The translations under genes and the position numbers were made by a program. Positions 2,679 through 49,289 of a stretch of 64,000 nucleotides of DNA are shown one piece after another. Under the pieces are notes generated by a model. It saw only the letters and a program-made list of their open reading frames with translations. It did no database searches and was not told the origin of the DNA. Source of the DNA: an uncultured Chlamydiae bacterium. Lineage in GTDB: Bacteria > Chlamydiota > Chlamydiia > Chlamydiales > JAJFMA01. The DNA lies in the NCBI GenBank assembly GCA_963790215.1, contig CAWBNS010000013.1, positions 54,000 through 117,999 on the forward strand, read 5' to 3'. How positions within the stretch are numbered: the first letter of the stretch is position 1; each line of letters starts with the position of its first letter.

Positions 2679-4370
2679 ATGAACTCACCCATCGACCCAA
2701 ATCGACCCTCACAAGAACCACAAACAGAGACGACGACACCCCCCATCGTTTCCGCAGAAAACCTACCTCCGAAAGCACTAGCTAAACACATCGTAATCGA
2801 AGTCCCTCCAAAACATACCTCCCCGCTAATCGTCAAACCCGCGCCCCCACCAAGGTCTAGAGAGCTGTTAGAGAAAAAAATTGTCCTGCTAAAACAAAAA
2901 TACGATCAGATTCAAAACGAATTTGAGCGAACAGAAATCCCTCATGAGAAAATCGCCTGTTACATATCCATGAAAACAATCAAAAATCAAATTTCCTACA
3001 TCAAAGCTGAAAAAGATGCGGTAAAAGCAGAAGAGCACTCGCTCATCATGAAGACCATCTATAAAGGATTTGACAAGGCTTGCCAAATCCTAAACCCATT
3101 CGGCCAAGTGTCTCGCCCTGCCAATACGAGTGTTGCAGGGACGTTTCCGTTTAACCCACTCACCTATGCTGCAGCCCTAGCAGACACCGCTAGTTTTTTC
3201 AGCGATCTATACAAGCTCACAAAGACCACCAAGCAGCTCCAGATTATTACCAGCCTAGAAAAAAAAGGAATAGAACGACTCAGCTCCATAGGCATCAACA
3301 TTCAATCAGAACGAATTTATGGAGATTCATTAGAAGAACGCGGGGAGAGCCGTGTCGAAGCGGATAGTCGGATCCAAAAAATGGAAACAGAGCGCGAAAT
3401 TCTGTTACAATACTTGAAACCCCTAGCCGATCTAAAGAAAAAAGTAGACCCAAGCAGCGCAGGACACCGTTTAGGTGTAGGTGTAGCAAAAATGGGATTG
3501 TCCTATCTCGATGTAGCCCACGCCATCATTGGGTTTGCATCCATCTTTGTCATCGCACAAACGATGGTTGTTACTGGTTTGGCCGTCAGCAGCCTCTCAG
3601 TTCTGTTTACAGGCGCATTGGTCGCTGTAGACTTCCTCGTTACACGCGCCAACCTGAAAAACGCCGTAGCCTCTTTGCACAACCTTCAGTTTCTTTCAGT
3701 AAAGTTTCGGGCTTCTCTCGAAGAACAATGGAAAAAAGTTTCGGATGTCGAAATAAAAAAAGTATCGGAAAACAGCCTAAACCTATTTGAGAACACTGTA
3801 ACGCCCTATCTAAAACAAAAATTAGAAATCAAAATCATCGAGCAGTGGCTCATCCGTGCAAGCGATGTCTTGGTCATTGCTGCCACAGCTGCTGCCGTAG
3901 TTACAACGATTTTAGCCGTTACAACTGTCGGGGCTGTCGCCCTCCCTCTACTCCTTATCCCTATCGCCATTGGTGCCTCAGCAGCAATTCTTATTCTGTC
4001 TTCACCTTTTCTCGCTAAATGGATTGTAGAAAAACAAAATGGGAAAAAGATACCCAAACCAGAAGAATTCCAACAAACGCTATTCAAACAATTGGAAGAG
4101 GAACAAGCCAACTGGAGCGAACTCGTCAGAAACGATCTCCACTATCATACCAATACCTACGTTTTGTACAACCTAGTTAAAGATTACTACCGCGGTGGAT
4201 TATCCATGGGACCACAAGAATGGGCACAGAGCCTAGTCGGTCCCCAATCCGCTGAAGCCCGCCGAGCCTTCGACAAAGCCCTAAACCACAAAATGCTCCA
4301 TCACGAAGCACGACGACTCACTGTTCGACAGATCGAAAAAATGGAAGCGAGGGAGAAAGATAAGCGATAG
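2679..4370 (+). CDS. Coiled-coil membrane protein, Inc-like, paralog B
   Basis: ATG preceded by TAGGAG. Architecture matches the upstream ORF: hydrophobic block 1 (IIGFASIFVIAQTMVVTGLAVSSLSVLFTGALVAVDFLV followed by RANLKNAVASLHNL) and bilobed block 2 (VLVIAATAAAVVTTILAVTTVGAVALPLLLIPIAIGASAAILIL). The C-terminal end NHKMLHHEARRLTVRQ is conserved. Confidence 0.6.
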   Translation: MNSPIDPNRPSQEPQTETTTPPIVSAENLPPKALAKHIVIEVPPKHTSPLIVKPAPPPRSRELLEKKIVLLKQKYDQIQNEFERTEIPHEKIACYISMKTIKNQISYIKAEKDAVKAEEHSLIMKTIYKGFDKACQILNPFGQVSRPANTSVAGTFPFNPLTYAAALADTASFFSDLYKLTKTTKQLQIITSLEKKGIERLSSIGINIQSERIYGDSLEERGESRVEADSRIQKMETEREILLQYLKPLADLKKKVDPSSAGHRLGVGVAKMGLSYLDVAHAIIGFASIFVIAQTMVVTGLAVSSLSVLFTGALVAVDFLVTRANLKNAVASLHNLQFLSVKFRASLEEQWKKVSDVEIKKVSENSLNLFENTVTPYLKQKLEIKIIEQWLIRASDVLVIAATAAAVVTTILAVTTVGAVALPLLLIPIAIGASAAILILSSPFLAKWIVEKQNGKKIPKPEEFQQTLFKQLEEEQANWSELVRNDLHYHTNTYVLYNLVKDYYRGGLSMGPQEWAQSLVGPQSAEARRAFDKALNHKMLHHEARRLTVRQIEKMEAREKDKR

Positions 4371-4384
4371 GAAGTGATGGCGAG

Positions 4385-5022
4385 GAGCGTTTATGCCTTT
4401 TCAACACAGAGGCACAGAGGCTCACAGAGATGCTATAGAAACGCGAGTTTTGGATAAGCCAGTCTTGGAAATAGCTTAGAATAAGTTATTTGAGTTGAAA
4501 AAAACTTCACAGGTTCAGGCTAAGATAAAGTTTTTGTGATTATGCAATTGATAACAAGCTCATTACGACAGGAAGACCCTCGTAGAGGGTCTCTGAATGT
4601 AGCCCACCGTGAACCTGCGAGTGAAGCGAAGACAGGTGTAACGGTGGGAAAATACGTCGAAAACCTATTGCACCCCCGAAGGGGTGTGCCTCAAGCTATT
4701 TGTAATCAACGAGCTGAGGCACTCTCGTTCGAGAGTGCGAACCCTATTTTGCCCATATTCCCACCGTTACACCTGTCTTCGCTGACGCTCGCAGGTTCAC
4801 GGTGGGCTACATTCAGAGACCCTCTACGAGGGTCTTCCTGTCGTAATGAGCTTGTATCAATTGCATAATCACAAAAACTTATCTTAGCCTGAACCTGTGA
4901 AGTTTTTTCAACTCAAATAACTTATTCTAAGCTATTTCCAAGACTGGCTTATCCAAAACTCGCGTTTCTATAGCATCTCTGGGAATCTCTGTGTCTCTAT
5001 GTTGAAAAAAGCATAAGCGCCC
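4385..5022. repeat. Outer hairpin element of the CACAGAG type, split by insertion of the 525-bp foldback element
   Basis: 4385-4440 (..gcgtttatgccttttcaacacagaggcacagaggctcacagagatgctatagaa) is the imperfect reverse complement of 4966-5022 (ttctatagcatctctgggaatctctgtgtctctatgttgaaaaaagcataagcgc..). The two arms would abut at agaa|ttct if 4441-4965 were removed. Confidence 0.75.
4441..4965. mobile_element. Non-coding foldback (MITE-like) element, copy 1: ~208-bp inverted arms and a 111-nt loop
   Basis: 4441-4648 is the near-perfect reverse complement of 4760-4965. Termini are acgcgagttttggataagcc / ggcttatccaaaactcgcgt. A second copy lies at 10084-10607. Only palindrome-artefact ORFs are present. 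The repeat is certain; mobility is inferred. Confidence 0.65.
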
Positions 5023-5076
5023 CACACAATCACTTTCTGCTGATCGCTCATCCTGCTTCATCTTTTTTTTTATTCT

Positions 5077-5115
5077 CCATCCTTTATCCTTCATCCTTTA
5101 TCCCTCATCCCTTAT
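5077..5115. repeat. Tandem direct repeat, about three units of (c)tcatcc(t)ttat
   Basis: The sequence reads ccatcctttat / ccttcatcctttat / ccctcatcccttat. The reverse complement (ATAAAGGATGA) resembles the CAGGAT/AAGGAT unit of hairpin elements elsewhere. A related half-motif (cttcatcctttat) occurs near 29790. Confidence 0.6.
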
Positions 5116-5146
5116 AGTCGAAATCTAAACTAAGGGAGCCGTCTAT

Positions 5147-5905
5147 ATGCCATTGTGGAGAGGATTATTGCTATTGTGTCTGATGACAAGCACTATGCTC
5201 TCTGCTTACACAACCTCCAAAATATCAGGAGCCGGTATTGGTGCTGGCGCTCCTCCTCCCCCAACAACACCACCCCCGATCAATACAAAGCTCTCTCCTA
5301 ACCCAAAAAAGGTGACCCGCCCCAAGCCTAATGTCCATGCCAAATACCTAGCCAAGCCCTCCGCAGCGGTCGGTCTCGTACCTCAAAATCAATCAACCTC
5401 GACAGAAAATCTCACTGGCGTACGCCCTGACCTGCAAATTGACGTACACCTTTTCGCCCCACAAGACGAACGATTCGGTCTGACCGTCGCAAAAATGGAA
5501 GAAGTACTGCTCCACGAACTCCACCTATGCCGCATCAAAAGTGGACAAGAAGCAACCATAAACAGCAGCCAGCCAAGACCACACCTCCTCCTCGAAGCTT
5601 ACGTTCAACCAATCAATGACTACTACGCCGTTTTCATGGATATGCGCCTGATCGAAGCCGCTTGCCCTAATCGTATCACCCTCAGACCTGGAGAAGTTTT
5701 TCAGGGAATCACCTGGGAACGCAAACAATCTTTCTGCACAGAAAAATACGACATCACAGCCGTCGTTTTACAAAAAACCGAAGACATGGTGATAGAATTC
5801 TCCACTAAATACCTCAGCGATCAGCCCGCACCACCCATCCCTCCCCAAGCCGTCACAAGAATGCCCTCTAAACCCGTAAAGGCTCCCCCTCCAAAAAATC
5901 GTTAA
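5147..5905 (+). CDS. Hypothetical secreted proline-rich protein
   Basis: AAGGGAG RBS. The N-terminal signal-like segment is MPLWRGLLLLCLMTSTMLSA. Pro-rich tracts occur at both ends (APPPPTTPPP; PAPPIPP..KAPPPK). No recognisable domain. Confidence 0.55.
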   Translation: MPLWRGLLLLCLMTSTMLSAYTTSKISGAGIGAGAPPPPTTPPPINTKLSPNPKKVTRPKPNVHAKYLAKPSAAVGLVPQNQSTSTENLTGVRPDLQIDVHLFAPQDERFGLTVAKMEEVLLHELHLCRIKSGQEATINSSQPRPHLLLEAYVQPINDYYAVFMDMRLIEAACPNRITLRPGEVFQGITWERKQSFCTEKYDITAVVLQKTEDMVIEFSTKYLSDQPAPPIPPQAVTRMPSKPVKAPPPKNR

Positions 5906-5964
5906 TTTGATATTAAATAGCTATTAAATTAGAATAAACATAACTAATTAAGGAGGGTTCTGCT

Positions 5965-6702
5965 GTGGCTAAAAAACAAAAGTTTTTTACCGAGGAATCT
6001 GCAGCGATGCTCGGTGACTGGTTAAGAGACAGCCAGATCGTAGATCTACCAAAACCTGAACAGGATCAAGCAGAAGCCCGTGCTTTAAAAAAATTATTAG
6101 ACGATTATAGCGCAGCCATTTCCAAAGGTTACCATCTCGTAATGCACGAAATCGCCTCAGACCCTGTGAAAAAAAACCACCTCAACGACTTTCGTATCGA
6201 CACCAATATCATCAAACAAATGCACAATGCAGAAGATGCGAGCAAGCTACTGCAAGAGCACGGTGTCCTACAAGGCGTGCTTGGTATCTCCGGCGAAACT
6301 ATGGGAGAGATGAATCGCATTGCCTGTAACCTCTACGACCAGAAGAAATACGATCAAGCCTGCTGGATTCTTCAGTATATGCTCTTTCTGAATCCCTATG
6401 TTTGCTACCTCTGGCAAGAGCTGGGACTCTGCTGCCAAGCCTTAAATCAATGGGACGAAGCCTTCTGGGCCTATGGAGTCGCCATCAACTGCGACCCACA
6501 TGAAAAGGAAACCTATAGCCTAGCCGTAAAAGCCAGTCTAGACCTAAAAGACTATGAAAAAGCCCGCGAGTTTGTTCAGGGCGGACTCGATCGCTTCCAA
6601 CGTCAATTGCCCAATCAAAAAAACGAGATCAAAGAATTTCTTGAAGATTTAAAAGAATACATCATGGCGCATGAACACGGGAGGATAGAAAATGTCGGTT
6701 AG
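5965..6702 (+). CDS. Type III secretion class II chaperone (SycD/LcrH/Scc2-like TPR protein)
   Basis: GTG start with AAGGAGG RBS. The segment GVLGISGETMGEMNRIACNLYDQKKYDQACWILQYMLFLNPYVCYLWQELGLCCQALNQWDEAFWAYGVAINCDP follows the SycD/LcrH TPR pattern, recalled from family knowledge rather than a search. Confidence 0.7.
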   Translation: MAKKQKFFTEESAAMLGDWLRDSQIVDLPKPEQDQAEARALKKLLDDYSAAISKGYHLVMHEIASDPVKKNHLNDFRIDTNIIKQMHNAEDASKLLQEHGVLQGVLGISGETMGEMNRIACNLYDQKKYDQACWILQYMLFLNPYVCYLWQELGLCCQALNQWDEAFWAYGVAINCDPHEKETYSLAVKASLDLKDYEKAREFVQGGLDRFQRQLPNQKNEIKEFLEDLKEYIMAHEHGRIENVG

Positions 6703-7855
6703 CATCAGCGGAGGTTCGCCAGAACCATTGAAACCAGTAGGATCTAAACCTATCAACCCTGCGTTTATGGCAGAATTATCAGGCGTATTAGCGAAAAATA
6801 CAAAAAAATTAGAAGGAAAAACTAACAATCCAAATGAAGCTCTCCAGGATGTCAAAGCGCATAATCCGGAATTCTTGCATGCTGACCAAGTCTTTATCGA
6901 TGGAGCTGCCAAGGGCAACGAAAACTCAATAAAACGAACTACAACAACGTTCGCCGCCATTCAAACAGGACTCGCTAGATTACCTGGAAGGGCAGCAAGA
7001 AAGGCACGTGCTTTTAGAGCTATGGCGGGTCAAGGACTTTCAAATCTATTTTCCAAAAAAGTGACCAACTCACCAGAAGCAAGTCAGAAAACCTCCATAC
7101 TTGCATCCCTTCATTTGCCAAAGTTTGGAGGTAAAAAGAAAATCTCTGTGCCAGCAGCTATTGCCATCCCAACCCCACCATCCTTAGAACAAAAAGAGGC
7201 GAAAAAGGAGCAATTACTGATCCCTAGCGATGTTGTCAATCGGTTCCATAAAGATGGATTGATCAATAAGGACCAGCGCGAAGAGCTCAAAGCACTACTT
7301 GCCCACAAAGACTATCCAGAAACGCACACGATACTTCTTTCTTGGATCAATAATAATTCGGCTCCGGTAAAACCAGGAAACCTCGAATTACAAGATTATC
7401 CGGCGTTATTACTAGAGGAAAGAATTGGGTCATTCGAAAAGCAGGTGTCATTTGGAGATCGGATTGCCAACGATTCCAGCATTCCTCAAGCCTGGAAGAG
7501 TACTTTGGCGCATAAAGCTAAGGACTATGAGCACGCGCGTTATCTAGCTAATGATTTTGATGCCGAGATGGAGGCCCAATTTGCTAGCGCGGGAAAAGAC
7601 AGCTCGCGACTACCCAAAACTGCTACTGCAGCTTCCTATGAGGACGCCGTCAATACGGCTCTAAAAATCTATCAAGAGTATGCCAAAGCGATGGGCGTGA
7701 ACATAGAAGAGAATCCATCCCTCAAGCTAGCTAAGGATGAGTCACCCAGAGCACAGCTCTCGGCTCTCGAAGCCGTTATTCATGACAATCTAGCCGCAAA
7801 ACGAGATAAAATCGGTGAGACTCTACAAATTCTTCTCGATAACCTCGAAGAGTAA
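6692..7855 (+). CDS. Hypothetical protein translationally coupled to the T3SS chaperone (candidate T3S substrate)
   Basis: The ATG overlaps the chaperone 3' end by 11 nt and has a GGGAGGA RBS. The protein is hydrophilic, with no TM segment and no recognisable domain. Confidence 0.55.
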   Translation: MSVSISGGSPEPLKPVGSKPINPAFMAELSGVLAKNTKKLEGKTNNPNEALQDVKAHNPEFLHADQVFIDGAAKGNENSIKRTTTTFAAIQTGLARLPGRAARKARAFRAMAGQGLSNLFSKKVTNSPEASQKTSILASLHLPKFGGKKKISVPAAIAIPTPPSLEQKEAKKEQLLIPSDVVNRFHKDGLINKDQREELKALLAHKDYPETHTILLSWINNNSAPVKPGNLELQDYPALLLEERIGSFEKQVSFGDRIANDSSIPQAWKSTLAHKAKDYEHARYLANDFDAEMEAQFASAGKDSSRLPKTATAASYEDAVNTALKIYQEYAKAMGVNIEENPSLKLAKDESPRAQLSALEAVIHDNLAAKRDKIGETLQILLDNLEE

Positions 7856-8030
7856 GGATAATCAGCGTCTCTGTCCGTGTTTGAAGAAGAATTTCACCAA
7901 GGCCGTATTGTAAAGCAGCGCTGCCGGGCTCGAGTCTTTTTGAAAAGGGGGAATTCTAGCATCTTCAGGTTAGTCTCAGCCATCCGATGATTTGATAATT
8001 CAACCTAAATTCTTAGCCTGAAAGAAAAAA

Positions 8031-8333
8031 TTAAAGGAAAAGGCGATAATCAATCTTAAAAAGTTCAGCCAATCGCTTGGCAAGGCTCTTACCGATAGGT
8101 CTTTTTCCATGCTCCATAAGAGAAATATTCGCCTGTTTAAGCCCGAGCATATCTCCCAATTCCTTCTGAGTGAGATCTTCTCTATATCGAAGACCCTTTA
8201 GCATTGATGCAGCTTGGGAATCGCTTCCTCTAAGTAGGCGAATGGCCTCTTCCGCAGACATCGGAGCGTCTTCGCGGTTACAAAAACTAACATCCTTCTG
8301 CTTAATAGGGTGCTTTCTCATGTGTGCCCGCAT
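8031..8333 (-). CDS. XRE-family HTH antitoxin (HigA-like)
   Basis: HTH segment LTQKELGDMLGLKQANISLMEHGKRPIGKSLAKRLA. It lies downstream of and overlaps a RelE-like toxin gene. It is a paralog of 42015-42401. Confidence 0.7.
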   Translation of the reverse strand: MRAHMRKHPIKQKDVSFCNREDAPMSAEEAIRLLRGSDSQAASMLKGLRYREDLTQKELGDMLGLKQANISLMEHGKRPIGKSLAKRLAELFKIDYRLFL

Positions 8334-8614
8334 AATATACCTCTATTGTTTTCTCTATTTTGCTGATAATCCGCCAACAGACTACATAAGTAGGCCGACC
8401 TTTTTTTGAGATGACAGTGGTAATCTTCACTGTTCATCTTAGTATAGTTAGGCCAGTTACTTCGATACGGACCTAGGCCTGACAATTCCGCTAACAACAA
8501 ATCCAGAGCATTTCCCGCTGCGCCTTGAATAAGCCCCTTTGCTAGAGCTTTTTTCGCTTGTCCTACGAGTGTATAAGTCCACGCCTCATCCGGCATAGCT
8601 AGATTATATATCAT
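8302..8614 (-). pseudogene. RelE/ParE-superfamily toxin, frameshifted at an A7 (plus-strand T7) run
   Basis: The listed ORF 8318-8614 ends ..HCHLKKRSAYLCSLLADYQQ... Removing one A from the run at 8401-8407 gives HCHLKKGRPTYVVCWRIISKIEKTIEVYYAGTHEKAPY*. This matches the paralog 41746-42018 (HCHLKKGKPTYVACWKVIDKENQLIEVYA). Confidence 0.7.
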
Positions 8615-8815
8615 TCATTGATATATCTCAAATCTTTTTGTAGCTGTGTGCTGGGGGCAATGCAACTAAAGGCATGGTACAGGCATACGCATGTTGTGAC
8701 AAGAAAACCTCGAAGTTGTTATTGGATTTAATGGTCAGTCATCTGCCGTTTTGTCAACTGTACTAGACAAAAAATCATCAAATTTGTAAGGTGTAGTTTG
8801 CAGTCAGGAGACCCC

Positions 8816-10018
8816 ATGCTCGAAGAACTCGTTTCGATCCATCAAGAAGTTATGCTAAGAACCCCGCAAAAATTTCATCGATATCTTTTTCCTAAGATCA
8901 ACTGGAAGGCCTTGGGTCTTTGTATTTTAGGAGACCGAGGAGTGGGAAAGACAACTCTCATTTGCCAAGACCTTTTAGAACGGTATCAATCACCAGCACG
9001 GGCGCTATATTTATCAGCCGACAATATCAACGTTGTTTCTATGGGCCTGTTCAATATTGCCAAATATTATTTTTCTCATGGTGGAGAAGCTCTTTATATT
9101 GACGAAGTGCATAAATATCCAAATTGGTCCATTGAAATCAAAAATATCCTCGACACATTTAAAGACAAACAAGTGATCTTCTCAGCCAGCTCATCGGTTG
9201 ACCTGAATCAAAGCAAAGGAGATCTCTCTCGAAGAGTCGTCTACCATCGTCTATTGGGACTCTCGTTTCGGGAATATCTTCTTTTAGCTCTTAACCTTCC
9301 GCTTCCTGAACTTACCTTTGAAGACATAATAAAAAGGCATAGTTCAATTGCCTCTGAATTTAGCTCTAAACAGCTATTAAAGCACTTTCACGACTACTTA
9401 AGGCATGGTTACTATCCATTTTTCATGGAAGGAATCGAAGACTATCTGTCCAAGGTGAACAATGTGATCGAGAAGGTACTTTTTGAAGACCTTGCCGTAG
9501 TCTACAATCTACGCCAGACAACATTACCTGTTCTTAAGAAACTCCTTTGGCTTGTCGCTACATCCAATGGACTGATCCCGAATATAGATAAACTGAGTAA
9601 AAACCTTGGAATTTCTAGAGAACTTGTTTACACCAGCTTAGAATATTTAAGTCATTCAGGACTGCTAAACGATGTTTTTACTGCCGTGACTGGGAACAGT
9701 CTAGTACGTAAACCGAGCAAGATCTATCTAAACAACTCGAACTTGCTTTGCGCAATCAATGGTTCGCTAAAGCTCGAAGCCGACGTTGGAGGTATTCGAG
9801 AAACATTTTTCGTTAATCAAGTTGGTAACCTTCACAAAGTTATTCTACATGATAAGGGCGATTTCTTAGTTGATAGCCAATATGTGATCGAAGTCGGCGC
9901 TAAAGGAAAGACGACTAAGCAGATTAAAAATGAATCAAATGCCTACTTGGCTGTCGATGATATTTCAGTCGGCTTTGGCCCCAAAATCCCTCTCTACCTA
10001 TTTGGTCTGCTCTACTAG
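8816..10018 (+). CDS. AAA+ ATPase (AAA_14 / DUF4143-type)
   Basis: Walker A is LGDRGVGKTTL and Walker B-like is ALYIDEVH. Size and layout are typical of DUF4143 ATPases. ATG at 8816 is preferred over the listed TTG at 8798. Confidence 0.6.
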   Translation: MLEELVSIHQEVMLRTPQKFHRYLFPKINWKALGLCILGDRGVGKTTLICQDLLERYQSPARALYLSADNINVVSMGLFNIAKYYFSHGGEALYIDEVHKYPNWSIEIKNILDTFKDKQVIFSASSSVDLNQSKGDLSRRVVYHRLLGLSFREYLLLALNLPLPELTFEDIIKRHSSIASEFSSKQLLKHFHDYLRHGYYPFFMEGIEDYLSKVNNVIEKVLFEDLAVVYNLRQTTLPVLKKLLWLVATSNGLIPNIDKLSKNLGISRELVYTSLEYLSHSGLLNDVFTAVTGNSLVRKPSKIYLNNSNLLCAINGSLKLEADVGGIRETFFVNQVGNLHKVILHDKGDFLVDSQYVIEVGAKGKTTKQIKNESNAYLAVDDISVGFGPKIPLYLFGLLY

Positions 10019-10083
10019 AAATAAGACACAACATAACATGAATTATCAGAACTTTATAACAAAGTAGCGTCCATCCCTACCAA

Positions 10084-10607
10084 ACGCGAGTTTTGGATAA
10101 GCCAGTCTTGGAAATAGCTTAAAGTAAGTGATTTGAGTTTAAAAAACTTCACAGGTTCAGGCTAAGATAAGTTTTTGTGATTATGCAATTGATAACAAGC
10201 TCATTACGACAGGAAGACCCTCGTAGAGGGTCTCTGAATGTAGCCCACCGTGAACCTGCGAGCGAAGCGAAGACAGGTGTAACGGTGGGAAAATGCGTCG
10301 AAAACCTATTGCACCCCCGAAGGGTGTGCCTCAAGCTATTTGTAATCAACGAGCTGAGGCACTCTCGTTCGAGAGTGCGAACCCTATTTTGCCCATATTC
10401 CCACCGTTACACCTGTCTTCGCTGACGCTCGCAGGTTCACGGTGGGCTACATTCAGAGACCCTCTACGAGGGTCTTCCTGTCGTAATGAGCTTGTATCAA
10501 TTGCATAATCACAAAAACTTCACAGGTCCTGAACCTGTGAAGTTTTTTTTCAACTCAAATAACTTATTCTAAGCTATTTCCAAGACTGGCTTATCCAAAA
10601 CTCGCGT
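10084..10607. mobile_element. Non-coding foldback (MITE-like) element, copy 2
   Basis: Same termini, arms and loop as 4441-4965, in the same orientation (the asymmetric loop reads the same way). The copies differ by a few substitutions and indels. Confidence 0.65.
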
Positions 10608-10630
10608 GGATTAGCTTGGCCAGGGTAATG

Positions 10631-11482
10631 CTACCGGCTCGCACCGAAGCTTAAACGGCAATCGGGTGAAGCTTTTCCGAGCATGAGATCATGAAGTGAA
10701 ATTCCGAGCTTTTCTTGGAAGGTTGTTGTGCGTACGATGCCTGCAGCTTTTGTCGCTTCAAGCAGTAGTTCGCCACCGAAAAAGAGCATGACGTGGTCGA
10801 CGCGTGTGCGGTCAAATGGAGCGGTGAAGGCAAGGTCGCCAGGGATTAGTTCATTGGCTGATAAGGGTTGGCAATGCAGAAATTGATCGTGCGCATCTCG
10901 TGGCAAGTTCATGCCATAAACACGGTATAAGAGGTTTACCAAGCCGGAACAATCCACACCTGTATCTGCAACCTCAGGAAGGTACGGTGTACGACCACCC
11001 CAAAAATAAGGCGATCCAAGAAAGCTCAGACCTAATTGTAGAAGCGATTCACGCCAATGCGAGCGTTGCACGGCTGCCACTTCATTAGCAGAGATCCACC
11101 CACTCCGTCCGTCAGGCAGCATCACTGTCCATCCTTCTTTCACTTGTGTGACGCCACATAATCGTGTTCCTAGAAGAAGTGTGGAGCGTTGGTCATCTGT
11201 ATGTAAGCTAGCTTGTGGCACCGTCACTACAAGACTGTCTTCCACATTCCATAATACGGGACGAATGGTATCCCACGGCAACCAACCGAGATATCCGTGC
11301 CATCCCTCCGAAGTTACCTGCGGCTGCTCGAGGGCCTCAACAAAGGCCCATAGGCCTTCACGCTTATGCAGAAATACCTTTTCGGCGAAAAGAAGCTGCG
11401 TATGCTGGTGATCCGGATCATCTCCTAAAACAGGTTGACTGCGTAGGTTTACGTGCGACGGATAAATCCAATAGTTTGACAT
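10631..11482 (-). CDS. NlpC/P60 (C40) cell-wall peptidase with N-terminal SH3b-like region
   Basis: Catalytic Cys motif GVDCSGLVNLLYRVYG and downstream His (RVDHVMLF). Confidence 0.8.
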   Translation of the reverse strand: MSNYWIYPSHVNLRSQPVLGDDPDHQHTQLLFAEKVFLHKREGLWAFVEALEQPQVTSEGWHGYLGWLPWDTIRPVLWNVEDSLVVTVPQASLHTDDQRSTLLLGTRLCGVTQVKEGWTVMLPDGRSGWISANEVAAVQRSHWRESLLQLGLSFLGSPYFWGGRTPYLPEVADTGVDCSGLVNLLYRVYGMNLPRDAHDQFLHCQPLSANELIPGDLAFTAPFDRTRVDHVMLFFGGELLLEATKAAGIVRTTTFQEKLGISLHDLMLGKASPDCRLSFGASR

Positions 11483-11486
11483 GAGT

Positions 11487-12542
11487 CTAAGATCCGATTA
11501 ATTCCAGATGCGCAACCGGCTGTAACCCTTCCAGGCTGACGCCTGGGCAGTCTGTTAGATCCAATCGCTTAAGTCGCGAAAGTGTGGCCAACTTGATCAG
11601 CGCTTTGTCTGTTACACCAGAGCACTCACTCAACGAGAGAGTTTCTAAAGATCGCATTTCAGCAAGATGGACAATCCCTTGCTCGGTAAGGTGAAATAGC
11701 CCGCCCCCGAGATCTAGCTCCACTAGGCTATCCAGTAAAGGCGAAGTTGATAGGATGTGTAGGCCTTGATCGGTCAGCTTTTTGGAACCAAACAAGCGCA
11801 AGCGCTGCAGCCCCCTGCACATTTCTGAATGCGCAATAAACCCGAGTGAGGCGTCAGTAAGAAGATCTAGATGGCTCAAATCAAGACTGTGCCACTCTCT
11901 CAGGCTGTGGGCCAAGTTGGCGACTCCGCGATCGGTCACTAGCAAGCAGCCGCCAATGTTCAAGTCGACCAGATGAGTTAATTGCGTCGAATGAGCTAAA
12001 GAACTAAGTCCTTTGTCTGTAATTTCGGCGCAGAGGTGCAAATTAAGCCTCTCCAGTGCTGTCCAATCGGGCCAGCGAGCTAACATATCCAACGCTTCAT
12101 CAGTTACGTCTGTACAGCCTTCTAGGTTGAGTCGTTTAAAATCAACGGTGGGTTCTCGTTTAGGAGTGTCAAAATACGGCCGATGCGAAGATCCAAGTGG
12201 TCCATGACCGACTCTACGATGTAATTTTTCTATAATCTGATAAACATTAGCATCAGTGTGGAGTCCTAAGAGTCGCAGCTGTGCACCTAAATTATTAAGT
12301 GCCAATCGGTCGATGTTGCGGATCTCGGTTTGATGCCGTAAAAGAAAACTCTCTACCTGCTGTCCTATTTCCTCAGGGGTGGATTTGTCGTTCTTCTGCA
12401 TAGCCTCAGCTAGGTCATAGGACAAATCGGCTAGTTGACGGTGAAACTGCGACGGCATAGCCGAACTCTCAGGGTAAAGATATCTTGGTAGTAGCATGGC
12501 TGGCACGTTTTTTTCAATGGGGAAGTAAAGGCTTTGTGGCAT
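11487..12542 (-). CDS. Eukaryote-like leucine-rich repeat protein (RNI/FBXL-type LRRs)
   Basis: About 25-aa repeats, e.g. LNLEGCTDVTDEALDMLA, LNLHLCAEITDKGLSSLA, LNIGGCLLVTDRGVANLA, LSLSECSGVTDKALIKLA, LDLTDCPGVSLEGL. No clear F-box. The first 50 codons of listed ORF 11487-12692 read through a palindromic repeat. The start at ATG 12542 is tentative. Confidence 0.65.
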   Translation of the reverse strand: MPQSLYFPIEKNVPAMLLPRYLYPESSAMPSQFHRQLADLSYDLAEAMQKNDKSTPEEIGQQVESFLLRHQTEIRNIDRLALNNLGAQLRLLGLHTDANVYQIIEKLHRRVGHGPLGSSHRPYFDTPKREPTVDFKRLNLEGCTDVTDEALDMLARWPDWTALERLNLHLCAEITDKGLSSLAHSTQLTHLVDLNIGGCLLVTDRGVANLAHSLREWHSLDLSHLDLLTDASLGFIAHSEMCRGLQRLRLFGSKKLTDQGLHILSTSPLLDSLVELDLGGGLFHLTEQGIVHLAEMRSLETLSLSECSGVTDKALIKLATLSRLKRLDLTDCPGVSLEGLQPVAHLELIGS

Positions 12543-12546
12543 ACAA

Positions 12547-12649
12547 ATTCGTGCCCTTGCCCGTGTGCGTGTGCGTGCCCGATCAGCTTGATCGCTATGC
12601 GGGATAACCTTGTTGTGCAAGTTTTCCGGGCACGGGCAAGGGCACGAAT
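12547..12649. repeat. Hairpin element (GTGCCC/GTGTGC units)
   Basis: attcgtgcccttgcccgtg..cccg (from 12547) is complementary to cgggcacgggcaagggcacgaat (ending 12649). It lies in the divergent promoter region between the LRR and GH9 genes. Confidence 0.7.
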
Positions 12650-12734
12650 GTAGGCAACGCAACGATAAATTGACATGAAACAAAAATATCAATTATTCTA
12701 TTAGTGATAGATAAAACAAAATAGGACAATTACT

Positions 12735-15700
12735 ATGATGATCCTGTTTAGAACTATTTCCTTTATTTTCATTCTCTCTCTGTTTAATTTACATGCCGCC
12801 GATACTCGGCCTACGAAAACTTCCACGGTCAAGATTATGAATGCAGGGGGAACAAGTGGAGAGATTCAGGATTTCCTGTATTTGCACGACACGGACTTGC
12901 AAAAGCGAGAATATGTGGTTGGCTCTGTCTCCCTAACGGCTGGGGACCAGACGGTTAAGGATAAGGGGGATGGAACGTTTACCGGCAGTGGAACGGGCAA
13001 GTTCGACTACGTGACCGGGCAGTTTTATGTTAAGTTTACCAAAATTCCGCCAAAGAGCACTCCGATTACGTTAACATTTACTTACTATCGGACGGCTTCA
13101 ACGACGACTACAACCCCTACAACTCCTACGGCTCCTCCCTCGACTCCGACAACAACAGGGGCCACTACTGACACGTTTGTACCGGCAACAGGTCGGGATC
13201 GATTGCCGGCTGATAAACAAGGTGCTTTCCCCGTTATGATTCCTCAATACAACGGAATCAATCAGCTGCTGCTTTTGTCTAATCAGTGGGTGATTGTGGC
13301 GGTGGACCAGACGGCTGATTTAACGAAGCAGATCCAAAATTTTATAGACGCTGATTCTTCATTTAAAGGCATTGATTTAGCGGCGGCACAGGCAAAATGG
13401 CTGTCTACTTCGTTAGCCGACCAAAAGCCGGATTATACCTCCATGAAGACGAATATTTTGGCGCCGGTGAACAAATATTACGTTAAAGCGCGAGAGAAAA
13501 CGAGCGAACGGCAAATGGCCGATCCTGCTTTCTTTTCAATCACAAGCAGTGACGATCCCGATTACTCACAGGGGCAAACACCTCTGCAGGTTGCGCATTT
13601 TATCACTTCACTAGGAAGGGCTGACTGGGCAGGCAATAATGCGCCTTACTCTACTTATGCGGTTTATTCTTATCTTCAATTCCCCTTCCCTATGAAGGAT
13701 GGTAAAACTTATACAATCTCTGCAGATGACGGTAAGTCTGTTACATTCACCTATGATGAATTCCGCAGCGTATCCCGATCCATCAAAACAAACCAGATCG
13801 GCTACTTACCATCGGGTAAGAAATATGCGTATTTGGGCGGATATTTGTGGGATTCGGGTCCTATGGATTTTTCGGCTGCAAAAACGTTTCATGTGATTGA
13901 TGTGAAGACAGGTACTGAAGTGTTCTCTGGTAATATTTTGGCTAAAGGCGCCAGTGCACAATCGGGTGAAAACCTGTATGAGATGGATTTATCTGGTTTG
14001 ACGACAACGGGTGACTACTTTATTTCGATTCCTGGCGTGGGTCGTTCATGGACATTTCACGTAGGTAAGGATGCGTATGGAGAGGCCTTCTACACGATGA
14101 TTCGTGGGTTGTATATGCAGCGCAGTGGAATGGCTGTCGGGCCTCCTTACTCCAACTGGCCTCGCAAGGCATATCATAATGTACCGGTTTACGAAAACGA
14201 CATTATTGAGCTTACACCACGAAACCTTCGCAAAAGTGTAACGCCCTATACTACACCTGAGACCTGGTCAGAGATAGCCGATTTTGATGTCTCTGGTGCT
14301 AGCATCGACAAGACTAAGGTTCATCAGGATGGTACGGGTGGTTGGTATGATGCGGGCGATTATCAAAAGCGATTATTTCATTATAACAACTTAATGGCAC
14401 TTTTATATCTGTACGAATTAAAACCGCAGAATTTTTCTGACAACCAATTGAATCTGCCTGAATCGGGAGATGGAGTTCCAGATATCTTAAACGAAGCTGA
14501 GTGGGGTTTAAAGGTCTGGAGCAATAGCATGGATGAGAATGGGGGTGTTTCTTCGCGCCTGCTTTCTAATTCACACCCTGCTCCGGATGATCCTGCTTAT
14601 CCTTATTCGTATGGAAAACGAACACGGTATGCTTCGTTATCGTTTGCAGCGGCCGCAGCGCAATTTGCACGTTTAGTTAAACCGTTCAGCGCAAGCAAAT
14701 CGAGTCAATGGCAGGCTTTAGCCGAGAAGGCGTATGCCTTCGGGACTAATCCAGCAAACAAATTAACGAACTATGTGATGCATGCGAAGACAAATAGGGG
14801 AACTGGAACTGCTTATACGATGACGTACACTGAGGACGACAATTTTAATGGTCCTTTCCTGGCTGGTGCCAAGATGCAGATGTATATGCTCACCAAAGAT
14901 AAATCGTATCTAGATGGGCTGACAACGTTGCTTGCACAGATGCAATCGCCAACAAACAAAGTTCCTAAGACTGTAACACCAGGTAAATTGGAAACGCAGA
15001 ATACCGCCTTATTACCGGGAACTTGGCCTTATACAAACCGTGATTTTATTCACTGGTTATTGGCTCCTGTTATTTTGGACACTGAAATTCAAACGGCTTT
15101 AGGTGCCACTGTCACGGCTACTTGGGCGAAAACCTTTACAAATATAGCGGATGGATATTTGAAATTTTACAGTACGCATCCTTACCGCATTTCGTGGGAT
15201 CCTACTAAGAATACAGGATTGGCCTGGGGCGCTAGTGCGATGACGAATCCGGCTGTGTTCTTGATTCTGGCCTACTACACAACTAAGGACCAAAAATACC
15301 TGGATGCTGCGGTAGCTGACGCAGACTTTATGCTCGGGGCTAATCCGATGGGTATGTCATGGACCACAGGGATGGGTTTTGTCTATCCCGTAAAGAACCA
15401 CTATCGGTTCAACGATTACAATGCGTGGATGGATCCTTTCCCAGGAATCATGGTTTATGGGCCGAATGAGCTAACCTTAAAAGATTTTGATGGAATCTGG
15501 TATCCAAAAGATACAGACGGTACGGTGCATAACTTTTTGTCGGCTAAAATGCTAGGGTCGGATGGTAAGGCGAGTATTCCTGTTCTACGTCGTTGGGTCC
15601 CTCACAACTACTTCAGCGTGGGGCAGAATGAGTTCACCATCTGGGAGACAAATGCGGGTGCGATCTTTACGTATGGGTATTTGTTAGATCAGCCTTGGTC

Positions 15701-15773
15701 GCCTAGCAGCGATCTGAAGAATCGCAAACCTCGTGATGAGCGGTTGCTGTTTGGGTTGTGGTATTTGCCCTAA
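12735..15773 (+). CDS. Secreted glycoside hydrolase family 9 (endoglucanase-like) with Thr/Pro linker and Ig-like CelD-N domain
   Basis: Signal peptide MMILFRTISFIFILSLFNLHA. GH9 signatures GGWYDAGDYQKR and NEFTIWETNAG. The Ig-like N-domain pattern is IKTNQIGYLPSGKKYAYL. Confidence 0.85.
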   Translation: MMILFRTISFIFILSLFNLHAADTRPTKTSTVKIMNAGGTSGEIQDFLYLHDTDLQKREYVVGSVSLTAGDQTVKDKGDGTFTGSGTGKFDYVTGQFYVKFTKIPPKSTPITLTFTYYRTASTTTTTPTTPTAPPSTPTTTGATTDTFVPATGRDRLPADKQGAFPVMIPQYNGINQLLLLSNQWVIVAVDQTADLTKQIQNFIDADSSFKGIDLAAAQAKWLSTSLADQKPDYTSMKTNILAPVNKYYVKAREKTSERQMADPAFFSITSSDDPDYSQGQTPLQVAHFITSLGRADWAGNNAPYSTYAVYSYLQFPFPMKDGKTYTISADDGKSVTFTYDEFRSVSRSIKTNQIGYLPSGKKYAYLGGYLWDSGPMDFSAAKTFHVIDVKTGTEVFSGNILAKGASAQSGENLYEMDLSGLTTTGDYFISIPGVGRSWTFHVGKDAYGEAFYTMIRGLYMQRSGMAVGPPYSNWPRKAYHNVPVYENDIIELTPRNLRKSVTPYTTPETWSEIADFDVSGASIDKTKVHQDGTGGWYDAGDYQKRLFHYNNLMALLYLYELKPQNFSDNQLNLPESGDGVPDILNEAEWGLKVWSNSMDENGGVSSRLLSNSHPAPDDPAYPYSYGKRTRYASLSFAAAAAQFARLVKPFSASKSSQWQALAEKAYAFGTNPANKLTNYVMHAKTNRGTGTAYTMTYTEDDNFNGPFLAGAKMQMYMLTKDKSYLDGLTTLLAQMQSPTNKVPKTVTPGKLETQNTALLPGTWPYTNRDFIHWLLAPVILDTEIQTALGATVTATWAKTFTNIADGYLKFYSTHPYRISWDPTKNTGLAWGASAMTNPAVFLILAYYTTKDQKYLDAAVADADFMLGANPMGMSWTTGMGFVYPVKNHYRFNDYNAWMDPFPGIMVYGPNELTLKDFDGIWYPKDTDGTVHNFLSAKMLGSDGKASIPVLRRWVPHNYFSVGQNEFTIWETNAGAIFTYGYLLDQPWSPSSDLKNRKPRDERLLFGLWYLP

Positions 15774-15785
15774 CCAGGTTGCTTA

Positions 15786-15961
15786 GAAATCACATTATGC
15801 TGTTTTTCGACGCAAAGACGCAAAGACGCGAAGGTTCGCAAAGATAGTCTAAAAGACATAAAAATTTAAAAAACTAAAATTAGTTTGTTTGTAAAGAACC
15901 GTCTTTGCGAACCTTCGCGTCTCTGCGTCTTTGCGTCGAAAAACAACATAATGTGATTTTT
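15786..15961. repeat. Hairpin element (CGCAAAGA units), ~58-bp arms and ~57-nt spacer
   Basis: aaatcacattatgctgtttttcgacgcaaagacgcaaagacgcgaaggttcgcaaaga pairs with tctttgcgaaccttcgcgtctctgcgtctttgcgtcgaaaaacaacataatgtgattt. It lies between convergent genes. Confidence 0.85.
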
Positions 15962-15986
15962 AAAGAACCTTAACTTGAAAGTATCG

Positions 15987-18407: not shown

Positions 18408-19430
18408 GTGATGATTAAAACAATAATAACGGTTGCTATTATAATGTCATCTTTCTCTTATGCTGATAATATAAGAATCAATCAAATTCAATTAAAAGGG
18501 ACACACAATAGTTATCATGTCCTAAAGCCCTATAATCCAGTGGAATGGCTCCCATGGGATCTACACATCACCGATTGGAATTACACACATGCACCTATTA
18601 CTGAACAACTTACCAATCAAGGAGTCCGGCAAGTCGAACTAGATATCCACATGGGCAAGGATGGATTCCCCGTCTATCACCTAACAGGCATCGATAATGG
18701 CAGCACCTGCAAAGATTTAACCGCCTGCCTAATAGAAGTGCGTGACTGGTCCATTGCCAACCCACACCATCAACTTTTGTGGCTCCTGATTGAACCTAAA
18801 GACACGGATGATCCCGGGAACTACTTCGGCGAATGGATCGCAGACCATTTGGATACCATTGAGGAGAACATCGAGAGTCTATTAGGGTCTGATAATATAT
18901 ACAAGCCAAGTGAGCTTCGAGGCAGTCACCCAACGATGCGGGACAGAATAGAGAAGGAAGGTTGGCCTACCTTGGACGCAACACGTGGAAAGATCACCAT
19001 TGTCTGGAATGCAATAGGTTCAAACAAAAAGGCTTATGCCAACTATAAGCCTGAGGCCTCTCAACTTCTGATGCTCCTGAAAGCAACACCTGAAGAGCTA
19101 ATAGGGGATTCTCCTTCGCCCTACGATATGGTCTACACCGAGGTGGGTGACCCCTTAAAGGGAAAGTCCTTGATCACAGAACTCGTCGAGAAAGGCTTTA
19201 TGGTGCGCACCAGGGCTGAAGAGCGCGGTCTGGATAGTAACGAAGCGAAGAAGGGAAAACGAGACCGTCCTGAAGCAGCTCTCGAAAGCGGTGCGCAGAT
19301 TATCTCAACGGATATTCCCGCCAAGGTGCCAGAAACAGACTATTTCTTTGCGATTCCCGGAGACCATGTCTCGCGGTGCAATCCGGTCAATTCCGATGCT
19401 GAGTGCAAACCGGAATTGATTGAACCGTAA
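18408..19430 (+). CDS. Secreted PLC-like phosphodiesterase (PI-PLC X-domain-like)
   Basis: N-terminal signal-like segment. The IQLKGTHNSYH motif is characteristic of the PI-PLC-like family. Confidence 0.55.
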   Translation: MMIKTIITVAIIMSSFSYADNIRINQIQLKGTHNSYHVLKPYNPVEWLPWDLHITDWNYTHAPITEQLTNQGVRQVELDIHMGKDGFPVYHLTGIDNGSTCKDLTACLIEVRDWSIANPHHQLLWLLIEPKDTDDPGNYFGEWIADHLDTIEENIESLLGSDNIYKPSELRGSHPTMRDRIEKEGWPTLDATRGKITIVWNAIGSNKKAYANYKPEASQLLMLLKATPEELIGDSPSPYDMVYTEVGDPLKGKSLITELVEKGFMVRTRAEERGLDSNEAKKGKRDRPEAALESGAQIISTDIPAKVPETDYFFAIPGDHVSRCNPVNSDAECKPELIEP

Positions 19431-19837
19431 AAAGAAAAAAACAGGATGATGAGGATCGCCTTCGCGGCAGGATGGGCAGGATATTGGTTGCTTGACTGAG
19501 TTCATGGCGGTTCAAAGTATGCTGTTTTGATTAAACGCAAAGGCGCAAAGAAGATTTTTGAAACGCTTTTTTTGAGCGGAGCTCAATAGGTCAGAACCGG
19601 CACCGGACAGCAAGGGCGGTCATAATTTTGACATCTCTGTAGCGCCCTTGCTGGTCTTGGTGCCGGTTCTCCTCAGCTTGCTTCGCAAGAACTGTATACT
19701 GTTCCCAACTCTTTCTTTGCGCCTTTGCGTTTAATCAAAACAGCATACTTTGAACCGCCATGAACTCAGTCAAGCAACCAATATCCTGCCCATCCTGCCG
19801 CCGAAGGCGATCCTCATCATCCTGTTTTTCTTTTTAA
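19428..19837. repeat. Composite nested hairpin element, ~125-bp outer arms
   Basis: Outer arms 19428-19553 and 19712-19837 contain CAGGAT units followed by CGCAAAG units. An inner inverted repeat (IR) is formed by ggtcagaaccggcaccggacagcaagggcg (about 19589-19618) and cgcccttgctggtcttggtgccggttctcc (about 19643-19672). Confidence 0.85.
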
Positions 19838-24085: not shown

Positions 24086-24122
24086 TTTTTGGAGTGCGGT
24101 GACTTGTCACTGCACTCCAAAA
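24086..24122. repeat. Short hairpin of the TTGGAGTGCGG...CCGCACTCCAA family
   Basis: The sequence ttttggagtgcggtgacttgtcactgcactccaaaa is a near-perfect palindrome with the GACTTGTC core. Confidence 0.8.
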
Positions 24123-25632: not shown

Positions 25633-25723
25633 AAAACAATTCTCTCGTTTATAACTTATCACCATTATTATAACACAAATCAAATTGATAATCTAAACAT
25701 CGCATAAAGCACGATATTTAATT

Positions 25724-25892
25724 ATTTTTCAGGATAACAGGATGAACAGGATAAAACTAAAAACGAATTGAGCTTTAAACGATAAAAACGATATAACGAT
25801 AAAAAGGATAAAATCCAATTAGCATAAGGCCGTATATTAAAAGCTAAATTCGTTTTTAGTTTTATCCTGTTCATCCTGTTATCCTGAAAAAT
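25724..25892. repeat. Hairpin element (CAGGAT units), ~45-bp arms
   Basis: atttttcaggataacaggatgaacaggataaaactaaaaacgaatt pairs with aattcgtttttagttttatcctgttcatcctgttatcctgaaaaat. Confidence 0.85.
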
Positions 25893-25990
25893 AAAAAAAA
25901 TGAATTTTGCTAAAAGCACGTTCCTGTCCCGATTTGCTACCAAATTGATCATGAGATATACTGATTCCTCAACGATCTGAGAGGAGCACT

Positions 25991-36416: not shown

Positions 36417-36516
36417 AATCATGAGCGTCTCTGTGCACTCTGTGGTGATTAATTTTTCAATAGTGTTTCAAAATTTTACCACAGGGATCACAGAGTGCAC
36501 AGAGACGCTCATGATT
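36417..36516. repeat. Hairpin element (CACAGAG units), ~30-39-bp arms
   Basis: aatcatgagcgtctctgtgcactctgtggt pairs with accacagggatcacagagtgcacagagacgctcatgatt. It uses the same unit type as the outer element at 4385-5022. Confidence 0.8.
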
Positions 36517-42490: not shown

Positions 42491-43099
42491 TTATTGCAGC
42501 GTAGGCGTAGTTCTCATTGAAGCATTACTCATACCTTGAGAAAGCCCCTCGGCATGACCTGCAGAATGTCCTTGAGAGTATCCCACAGAACGACCTGCAG
42601 AAAGTCCTTCGTCATATCCGACTTTGTAACCCTCGGCAGACCCTTCCTTACGAACATCGTAGAAAAAGTTATCTAGAAACTCCGATGGCTGCATAGAAAT
42701 GGCAAACAAAATCTGACCATTTTTTGAGTTGTATAGTAAGTGAGTACACTGTCTAAGAACTTTTTCATTCTTAGCATTGGCTAGATCTACTTCAAGGTGA
42801 TCATTTTTTGAAAAGACCTGTATTTCTGCACCTGTGTACCAATCACTCGGAACGCATTCATAATGTTCTGGAATTAGAGAAGCGCTGTTCCACCACTCCG
42901 AAAGCGTTCTCGTTCTTTTCACAAACGTAATCACTTTCCAAAAACTCACGTCCGATAAAATGAAATATCCGTTCGAATTTTTCAGAATTGCTTTTGACGC
43001 AAGAGTCTCAACTCTTTGTAGTTCGCTGGCATTACAAACTGAACAATTCATCGTAATCAGCATTGCAAAAAATACGATTGTCTTGTTTACAAGTTTCAC
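42491..43099 (-). CDS. Hypothetical secreted protein with a Gly-rich periodic C-terminal tail
   Basis: Signal peptide MKLVNKTIVFFAMLITMNCSVCNA. The tail is EGYKVGYDEGLSAGRSVGYSQGHSAGHAEGLSQG. Confidence 0.5.
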   Translation of the reverse strand: MKLVNKTIVFFAMLITMNCSVCNASELQRVETLASKAILKNSNGYFILSDVSFWKVITFVKRTRTLSEWWNSASLIPEHYECVPSDWYTGAEIQVFSKNDHLEVDLANAKNEKVLRQCTHLLYNSKNGQILFAISMQPSEFLDNFFYDVRKEGSAEGYKVGYDEGLSAGRSVGYSQGHSAGHAEGLSQGMSNASMRTTPTLQ

Positions 43100-47916: not shown

Positions 47917-47997
47917 AAAGGACAGCAGGGACGACAGGGACATCAGGGACTATGTGCGACGTCCTTGCAGTCCCTGATGTCCCTGCAGTCCCTTTTG
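47917..47997. repeat. Hairpin element (CAGGGAC units) in the nuoE-nuoF spacer
   Basis: cagggacatcagggact (47935-47951) pairs with agtccctgatgtccctg (47969-47985). Outer arms are imperfect: aaaaggac / gtcccttt. Confidence 0.75.
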
Positions 47998-49273: not shown

Positions 49274-49289
49274 TACAAAGATAGAAATT

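Follow-up and report, generated by a model that had tools for sequence, protein, structure and literature searches.

Two foldback repeats beside a type III secretion chaperone cluster in an uncultured chlamydia-like bacterium are probably separate insertions and not the ends of a mobile unit

When two nearly identical repeats stand on either side of a group of genes, have the repeats carried those genes, or did they arrive one by one? The question is raised by a stretch of 64,000 nucleotides (nt) from an uncultured Chlamydiae bacterium (contig CAWBNS010000013.1, positions 54,000 to 117,999), which we call the window and whose own numbering we use throughout. In the window, two copies of a long foldback repeat enclose 5.1 kb of DNA with six genes, which encode a 252-aa protein, a secretion chaperone, the 387-aa partner of the chaperone, an XRE regulator, a frameshifted small open reading frame (ORF) and an ATPase. 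A first-pass annotation had likened the arrangement to a composite mobile unit carrying a host-interaction cassette. We believe, with a probability of about 0.72, that the copies are two separate insertions of a non-coding, non-autonomous foldback repeat, and that the 5.1 kb between them is not a unit.

Copy 1 (4441-4965, + strand, 525 bp) lies after a stop codon, and copy 2 (10084-10607, + strand, 524 bp) lies between two convergent genes, those for the ATPase and for an NlpC/P60 hydrolase. In a global alignment the copies differ at 17 of 529 columns. They are 96.8% identical when aligned directly and 89.3% when one is aligned to the reverse complement of the other, so the asymmetric centre lies the same way round in both and the copies are direct repeats, with the positions and orientation that the first-pass annotation had given them. 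Both copies form nearly perfect hairpins, with a self-complementarity of 90% in copy 1 and 87% in copy 2. Copy 1 folds into a single hairpin with a free energy (dG) of -274 kcal/mol, z = -53 against shuffled sequences. In its arms the outer 64 nt and the inner 68 nt pair without a mismatch, and between them lies an asymmetric centre (4625-4783). Copy 2 has 4-5 private changes in the left outer arm and an 8-nt patch in the right arm that looks like the result of a template switch. This patch (10520-10527) converts CTTATCTTAGCCTGAACCTGTGAAG to the locally perfect palindrome CTTCACAGGTCCTGAACCTGTGAAG, which is the kind of change that template switching within a hairpin produces.

The window has the terminal 22-mer of the repeat at four places, one in each arm, against an expectation of none, and it has no further copies of the 525-bp element besides these two. 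The ORFs on the copies are by-products of the palindrome with no family match, and we found no credible gene among them. A search of 4000-11000 against Rfam at a permissive threshold gave a single chance-level hit, inside the gene for the 387-aa partner (7199-7270). In a promoter and terminator scan, promoter counts were no better than in shuffled sequence and nothing notable appeared at the element ends. We also looked at a separate assembly of the run ERR12037361, where the enclosed interval is a contig of 5159 nt and the right flank is a contig of 5234 nt. Both contigs terminate 14-30 nt into the repeat. Since a k-mer assembler breaks inside real repeats, we conclude that the source assembly did not create this one.

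One line of evidence for separate insertion comes from the flanks of copy 1. The 82 nt to its left (4359-4440), which overlap the stop codon of the gene for a 563-aa protein, are complementary to the stretch on its right (4966-5052), and we take the two to be the halves of an older hairpin that was the target of copy 1. When the flanks are rejoined in silico they form a hairpin of 160 nt with a dG of -53 kcal/mol and z of about -11, and the insertion point is the exact apex of this hairpin, GCTATAGAA^TTCTATAGC. At either end of a composite element, one would expect no relation between the inner flank and the outer one. Since the flanks of copy 1 pair with each other, copy 1 was inserted separately, as a single copy. 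Copy 2 lacks the outer hairpin layers at both ends, so the 525 bp are the repeating unit and the outer hairpin is the target. We found no target-site duplication at either copy or around the whole 6.2-kb unit, with three boundary choices tried per copy. A possible CTATAG duplication is seen at copy 1 only and is unsupported at copy 2. The outer flanks of the 6.2-kb unit read ...GCTATAGAA on the left and GGATTAGCT... on the right.

The gene order on the left side points the same way. The first gene after copy 1 (5147-5905, + strand) encodes the 252-aa protein, which is proline-rich with an N-terminus like a signal peptide and has no family match. It is followed by the chaperone gene (5965-6702, + strand). 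The product matches TIGR02552 with an E-value of 1.9e-18 over profile positions 2-132 of 136, and the score of 66.5 bits is below the cut-off of 104.8 bits. It also matches tetratricopeptide repeat (TPR) families in Pfam and the solved chains of SycD, PcrH and AcrH in the PDB (1e-5 to 3e-7). With a nearly full-length profile match and these structures, the earlier call of a SycD/LcrH-like (class II) type III secretion chaperone is reasonable. The protein resembles the SycD/LcrH/Scc class in that its TPR region spans most of TIGR02552 and its gene lies directly 5' of a fast-evolving partner. It differs from that class in its score under the cut-off and in an N-terminal extension of about 95 aa, and its partner has no obvious translocator-like hydrophobic segments. 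The partner ORF (6692-7855, + strand, 387 aa) overlaps the end of the chaperone gene by 11 nt and has no family match, as the first reading of the locus had it.

Relatives of the chaperone are rare. Among 5.8 billion proteins we found only three, at the loci L002 (63% identical), L003 (60%) and L089 (78%, the closest; sample ERZ28653932). Orthologs of the 252-aa protein are encoded directly upstream of the chaperone gene in L002 (55%) and L089 (73% over 133 aa), and homologs of the partner directly after it in L002 (27%) and L003 (26% over the full length, E 1e-26). The partners (6692-7855 against 10726-11868 of L002 and 899-2035 of L003) are thus only 26-27% identical where the chaperones are 60-63% identical. 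From these identities we infer that the partner diverges unusually fast, as is often the case for secreted substrates, and it is a candidate secretion substrate.

The similarity to L002 continues beyond copy 1. The window begins with a gene (76-2670, + strand) for a large protein that is probably truncated by the left end of the window and has no Pfam or NCBIfam match. Its product is the ortholog of a 1031-aa protein of L002, with 44% identity over 910 aa by tblastn. Next comes the gene for the 563-aa protein (2679-4370, + strand), the final gene before copy 1, which encodes a tandem paralog with hydrophobic segments and 25% identity to the C-terminal part of the 1031-aa protein. In L002 the order is the 1031-aa protein, a gap of 100 bp, a 244-aa protein, the chaperone and the partner, with no foldback. 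This shared order across the site of copy 1 in repeat-free relatives means that copy 1 split an older cluster. It also speaks against reading the enclosed genes as a block that was moved, as the same genes in the same order stand at the left boundary in L002 with no repeats, an outcome that the first-pass annotation had named as one that would refute its proposal. L089 (ortholog of the 252-aa protein, then chaperone) and L003 (chaperone, then partner) bear out parts of this order.

On the right, synteny ends near 7855. The next gene after the partner in L002 and L003 encodes the motif '...GDISIKQG...' and has no counterpart anywhere in the window, and neither locus has the genes that follow the partner here. 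The GC content is 0.456 for 4966-7855 and 0.411 for 7856-10083, and the ATPase gene is the lowest in the interval (0.405, 2.1 standard deviations below the mean of 42 window genes). A GC comparison, which the first-pass annotation had proposed for the cassette, sets the right part (ATPase z -2.1) apart from the left, and the interval is not uniform. It is a mosaic of ancestral genes on the left and accessory genes on the right.

The accessory genes begin with what had been called a HigBA-like toxin-antitoxin (TA) pair. The antitoxin side of that description is plausible, as there is an antitoxin-like XRE-type helix-turn-helix (HTH) protein encoded at 8031-8261 (- strand; 76 aa from the ATG at 8261, with the longest ORF reaching 8333), which matches HTH_3 with an E-value of 8e-9 and the HipB/HigA families of NCBIfam weakly and under their cut-offs. 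The toxin side fares worse. The small toxin-like gene next to the XRE gene, on its upstream side (8302-8614, - strand; annotated ORF 8318-8614, 98 aa) has a frameshift at a run of seven A (A7, 8401-8407), past which the alternative frame continues GRPTYVVCWRIISKIEKTIEVYYAGTHEKAPY to a stop. The frame-corrected product of 103 aa matches phrog_32175, a family of unknown function, with an E-value of 3e-16 through the end of the profile. Neither the raw nor the corrected product matches RelE, ParE, HigB or any other toxin family, with no match in Pfam (E up to 10), NCBIfam, PADLOC or the PDB. An AlphaFold single-sequence model of the 103-aa product reached a mean confidence (pLDDT) of 48, and at this low confidence the order of elements is helix-helix-strand-strand-strand. 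Foldseek returned nothing significant for this model, with a probability of only 0.16 for HigB2. Since there is no toxin family and the gene is frameshifted, we call the pair TA-like, with the toxin unproven and interrupted.

The A7 frameshift may mark a pseudogene or a homopolymer sequencing error. Two other genes in the window are split in a similar way, nuoL (54440-56061) into three overlapping ORFs and an SMC/RecN-like gene (28181-29759) into two, and these splits suggest indel errors in the assembly, or gene decay. Given such errors elsewhere, the break in the toxin-like gene may have no biological basis.

The last gene before copy 2 (8816-10018, + strand) encodes an ATPase that matches AAA_14 in Pfam with an E-value of 4e-22 and DUF4143 with an E-value of 5e-4, the latter below its cut-off. 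It also matches the models of the PADLOC candidate defence family PDC-S01 (PDLC04789, E 4.4e-24), and the initial call of a DUF4143 ATPase is borne out. PDC-S01 is a very common single-gene candidate that combines an ATPase with a PD-(D/E)XK domain, and its role in defence is mostly unvalidated (PMC12988326). The ATPase of the window is like PDC-S01 in its model matches, in having an ATPase with DUF4143 (PD-(D/E)XK-type), and in being a single gene found in varied contexts, and by this sequence match it is a candidate defence gene. Homologs number in the thousands at 60-77% identity, and some are labelled as coming from metagenome-assembled genomes (MAGs) of Chlamydiota or Verrucomicrobiota. 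We compared the loci L084, L085, L086 and L087 and 80 metagenome loci. In L084, L086, L087 and the 80 metagenome loci the ATPase gene is alone among unrelated neighbours. Neither TA-like genes nor a foldback lies beside it at any of the 80 metagenome loci and three assembly loci, and we rejected the idea that the ATPase family is tied to either. L084 has an unrelated palindrome of 83 bp directly after the ATPase gene.

Upstream of the ATPase gene is a leader of about 55 nt (8752-8806, + strand), which is 80-86% identical to the upstream regions of L084, L085 and L086. The homology to these loci ends 5' of the leader and at the stop codon, and the flanks beyond are unrelated. As leader and ATPase are conserved amid differing flanks, the gene travels or persists with its own leader, independent of its present neighbours. 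The leader contains a short inverted motif, TGTC...GACA, and may act as a promoter or operator that the gene takes along.

To see how far the repeat extends beyond the window, we need to look at its core. The alignment with a foldback in L002 defines a core module in the left arm of copy 1 (4576-4648, + strand) that consists of the hairpin GACCCTC-GTA-GAGGGTC, then TAGCCCACCGT, about 30 nt, and ACGGTGGG, and mirror-image modules lie at about 4760-4833, 10217-10289 and 10400-10473. The L002 element (3228-3861) is a nested, 'Russian doll' foldback of 630 bp whose middle layer is homologous to the core in the window. What the two have in common are two local hairpins, ACCCNCG-NA-GNGGGT followed by the pair TAGCCCACCGT and ACGGTGGG some 30 nt apart. 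Among 83 loci this motif occurs only in the window (four times) and in L002 (twice). Two pairs of the first stem have compensatory changes between the window and L002, and the second stem is invariant. The compensatory changes are suggestive of pairing that was kept, though between two lineages only.

The outer arms differ between the window and L002, and those of L002 recur as an independent foldback of 130 bp (5664-5795). The centre of the L002 foldback has a further palindrome of GGGACCTAAG repeats. A third site in L002, 16619-16730, is listed with 3228-3861 and 5664-5795. The picture is one of modular, nested palindromes.

Other copies were recovered by searching protein databases with a spurious ORF that runs across the element. 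ORFs of this kind lie on a full diverged copy (P0001), on fragments (P0002 and P0131) and on an element of the L002 type (P0132), and P0130 has two core modules about 165 nt apart. The contigs that hold these ORFs are, in no stated order, 65, 124, 105, 494 and 40 kb long, and in all we found related copies or fragments on at least seven other contigs. Nucleotide searches found much less. In 185,579 species genomes, a collection without the source genome, the terminal 22-mer had one chance hit, which fell within a gene of an Elusimicrobiales MAG and was not part of a foldback. The core 22-mer had no matches in metagenome and viral contigs, and the element had no match in plasmid and phage records in a sensitive mode.

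Palindromes are unusually frequent in these genomes. In the window nine reach 60 bp or more, each of them intergenic, which makes one per 7 kb. Unrelated metagenome loci have 21 in 590 kb, or one per 28 kb, and the density in the window is about four times higher. The seven besides the two foldback copies are unrelated to the 525-bp family and lie at 15776-15970, 19428-19836, 25722-25894, 36417-36516, 47927-47993, 49289-49396 and 54064-54178. Those at 19428-19836 and 49289-49396 have outer arms of CAGGAT-type short tandem repeats in common, and the termini of the one at 54064-54178 recur at 24086-24108 and 51730-51749. L003 has a different foldback of about 150 nt, similar to a miniature inverted-repeat transposable element (MITE), in direct copies that are 81% identical. 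They lie at 1-110 and about 2040-2200, upstream of the chaperone and downstream of the partner, and the contig begins inside the left copy.

From these observations we can outline how the locus may have come about. The left half of the interval (5147-7855) would be an ancestral type III secretion chaperone and substrate cluster that continues beyond copy 1. The right half (7856-10083) would consist of accessory DNA, namely a TA-like pair that has decayed and a PDC-S01 ATPase that is widely transferred and has its own leader. The foldback repeat was presumably moved in trans by an enzyme encoded elsewhere. From the position of copy 1, such an enzyme would read hairpins or single strands and prefer hairpin tips. 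By comparison, candidates are enzymes of the Y1/RAYT or IS110 types, or a loop-targeting enzyme like that of IS1397. The presence of two copies close together would reflect local spread or clustering, of which the two adjacent modules of P0130 may be another case.

The sole effect of the copies on the genes between them would be a risk of RecA-type deletion or inversion and possibly termination or processing of transcripts at the hairpins. Recombination of the RecA type between the copies is possible, judging from their sequence. The longest stretch that is identical between them is 199 bp, and the first-pass annotation was right to see in them a plausible substrate for homologous recombination. 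It put too much weight on their being direct repeats. That orientation is correct, but over 64-113 nt the arms of one copy are also 96-100% complementary to those of the other, which makes inversion as feasible as deletion. As for the closeness of the two copies, we made our own estimate of the number of close pairs expected from N random copies in a genome of 2.5 Mb, as N(N-1) x 5.6 kb / 2.5 Mb. This gives about 0.2 at N = 10 and 0.85 at N = 20, so the bracket is unremarkable if the family is moderately abundant.

Several points weigh against two separate insertions. How likely such closeness is by chance depends on the copy number in the whole genome, of which the window shows two copies. 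When the flanks of copy 2 are rejoined they form no significant hairpin (z -1.3 to -2.1). We found no mobilising enzyme, and the window has no transposase, integrase or RAYT (Y1) gene. The relatives with which we compared gene order are few and distant (chaperones 60-78% identical), and the comparison covers the left boundary only, with none for the right. Because they are free of the repeat, these relatives date the insertion, and a later movement of the pair stays compatible with them. Finally, a second repeat family also brackets the chaperone and partner genes in L003, which could hint at a non-random association.

As to what kind of element this is, we place it in the MITE/REP-like class (REP, repetitive extragenic palindrome) as a new family, one that is unusual in its length, its near-total self-complementarity, the lack of a target duplication and its position at a hairpin tip. 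Bacterial MITEs such as Correia/NEMIS, RUP, ERIC and Nezha are usually 70-300 bp long (PMC3733652). Like them, the repeat of the window is non-coding, intergenic and multi-copy, has inverted termini (a perfect 64 nt in copy 1), forms a strong hairpin and was presumably moved in trans. Unlike them, it is 525 bp long and self-complementary over nearly its whole length where MITEs have inverted termini of 15-30 bp, and we found neither a target duplication at either copy nor a cognate insertion sequence.

GTAG-tagged REPs are stem-loops of 20-40 bp with a stem of 5-13 bp and a loop of 2-20 nt (PMC3733652). REPs and the bacterial interspersed mosaic elements (BIMEs) resemble the window repeat in that they are hairpin-based, lack target duplications, occur in clusters and are found downstream of genes. 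The CCCACCGT stem of the window copies is also preceded by GTAG. This unit consists of GTAG and CCCACCGT, about 30 nt and ACGGTGGG, and its 8-bp stem fits a REP, but its loop is too long. The stem is, moreover, one module of a 525-bp foldback, the tag in L002 is TTAG, and there is no RAYT gene in the window.

Insertion sequences of the IS1397/ISKpn1 type, which target the hairpin loops of REP units, and palindrome-associated elements derived from IS200/IS605 are like the repeat studied here in inserting at the tip of a pre-existing hairpin, in producing nested palindromes and in causing no or minimal duplication. They differ in being coding elements or short derivatives with known transposases, and for the window repeat the insertion at an apex is known from one copy only. 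One could go further and propose an undescribed mobile family of a chlamydia-like lineage, in which a core of two hairpins is recognised by an enzyme specific for hairpins or single strands, insertion into hairpin tips without duplication builds nested palindromes, and copies that flank secretion-substrate loci promote their shuffling. We regard this proposal in its full form as speculative, with the odds against it.

Of the other explanations for the locus, the one that survives best is a rearrangement scar. According to it, recombination between foldback copies, in either orientation, exchanged the ancestral downstream genes for the right block, and copy 2 marks the breakpoint. The end of synteny with L002 and L003 after the partner gene would agree with this. 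So would the complementarity of the arms, which makes inversions feasible, and the lack of a recognisable hairpin target at copy 2. However, copy 2 is 2 kb away from the synteny break at about 7855-8031, where no remnant of a repeat is left, and the right block is heterogeneous, with the ATPase and its leader as a separate module. We consider a scar unlikely, and it keeps what standing it has because the right flank has no comparison.

It is also conceivable that the host has selected the repeats as structural or regulatory hairpins that end or process transcripts or insulate genes, which would be compatible with a selfish origin. The intergenic position of all nine large palindromes fits this, as do the places of copy 1 after a stop codon and copy 2 between convergent genes. 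The arms also hold stems followed by T-runs, and the core has kept its pairing through two compensatory changes between genomes. On the other hand, there is no Rfam match, the terminator scan showed nothing special at the element ends, the covariation comes from two lineages only, and the orthologous intergenic region of L002 works without the element. Selection by the host seems to us quite improbable as the explanation.

Still less probable is the composite unit of the first-pass annotation, in which the copies are transposon-like ends that move the six genes together. We can see why it was proposed. Two direct copies of 97% identity do bracket the genes, the right part has a foreign-looking composition, and a TA-like pair with a defence-type ATPase is typical cargo. 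The bracketing of cargo genes by two repeat copies is also what composite transposons such as Tn5 and Tn10 have. However, the window copies encode nothing and have no transposase, and there is none anywhere in the 64 kb: of the 48 ORFs with 150 aa or more, 46 have no transposase or integrase domain, and the remaining two are antisense ORFs inside larger genes. The outer ends have no duplication, the two copies sit in separate insertion contexts, and the flanks of copy 1 pair with each other. The cargo is partly ancestral, as three of the six genes are syntenic, together with the gene family outside copy 1, in repeat-free relatives. The block as such was not found elsewhere in searches of species genomes, metagenome and viral contigs, plasmid and phage records, and proteins. 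We therefore do not uphold the composite unit.

The weakest explanation is an assembly artefact, spurious inverted or duplicated sequence from long-read assembly, and we dismiss it: frameshifted genes typical of long-read errors do occur (nuoL in three ORFs, the split SMC-like gene and the toxin-like ORF), but the contigs of an independent assembly break right at the edges of the repeat, related copies exist on other contigs and in another genome, and the two copies differ at 17 positions.

A few other features of the window are of interest for the setting of the locus. The first gene past copy 2 (10631-11482, - strand) encodes an NlpC/P60 peptidoglycan hydrolase (Pfam NLPC_P60, E 6e-16). The adjoining region encodes a family 9 glycoside hydrolase that is cellulase-like (12735-15773, + strand), an F-box-type leucine-rich repeat (LRR) protein (11487-12692, - strand) and a phosphatidylinositol (PI)-specific phospholipase C (18408-19430, + strand). 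Together these genes hint at life inside a eukaryotic host, for example an amoeba. Within the sequence, a place in Chlamydiota is suggested by the secretion chaperones, the F-box-like LRR proteins and the names given to some of the ATPase homologs. The two window genes with the lowest GC lie at 42491-43099 (- strand; GC 0.40, z -2.1) and 43269-43973 (+ strand; GC 0.37, z -3.2). The product of the former is weakly FliH-like at its C-terminus, as regulators of secretion ATPases typically are, and that of the latter matches nothing. A tRNA scan found no tRNA genes.

On our reading, no transposon carries the type III secretion chaperone cluster of this organism, and a tempting false lead is removed. 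The interval is also an example of how host-interaction genes can gain a decayed TA-like pair and a PDC-S01 ATPase as neighbours. We are left with long foldback repeats that form a small, lineage-restricted family in palindrome-rich genomes and that include one clear insertion at a hairpin tip. If the family is indeed mobile and seeks such tips, it would serve in practice to mark where assemblies of such genomes break and where rearrangements concentrate, and hairpin-targeted transposition would gain a useful natural example from a bacterium that is uncultured and probably lives with a host.

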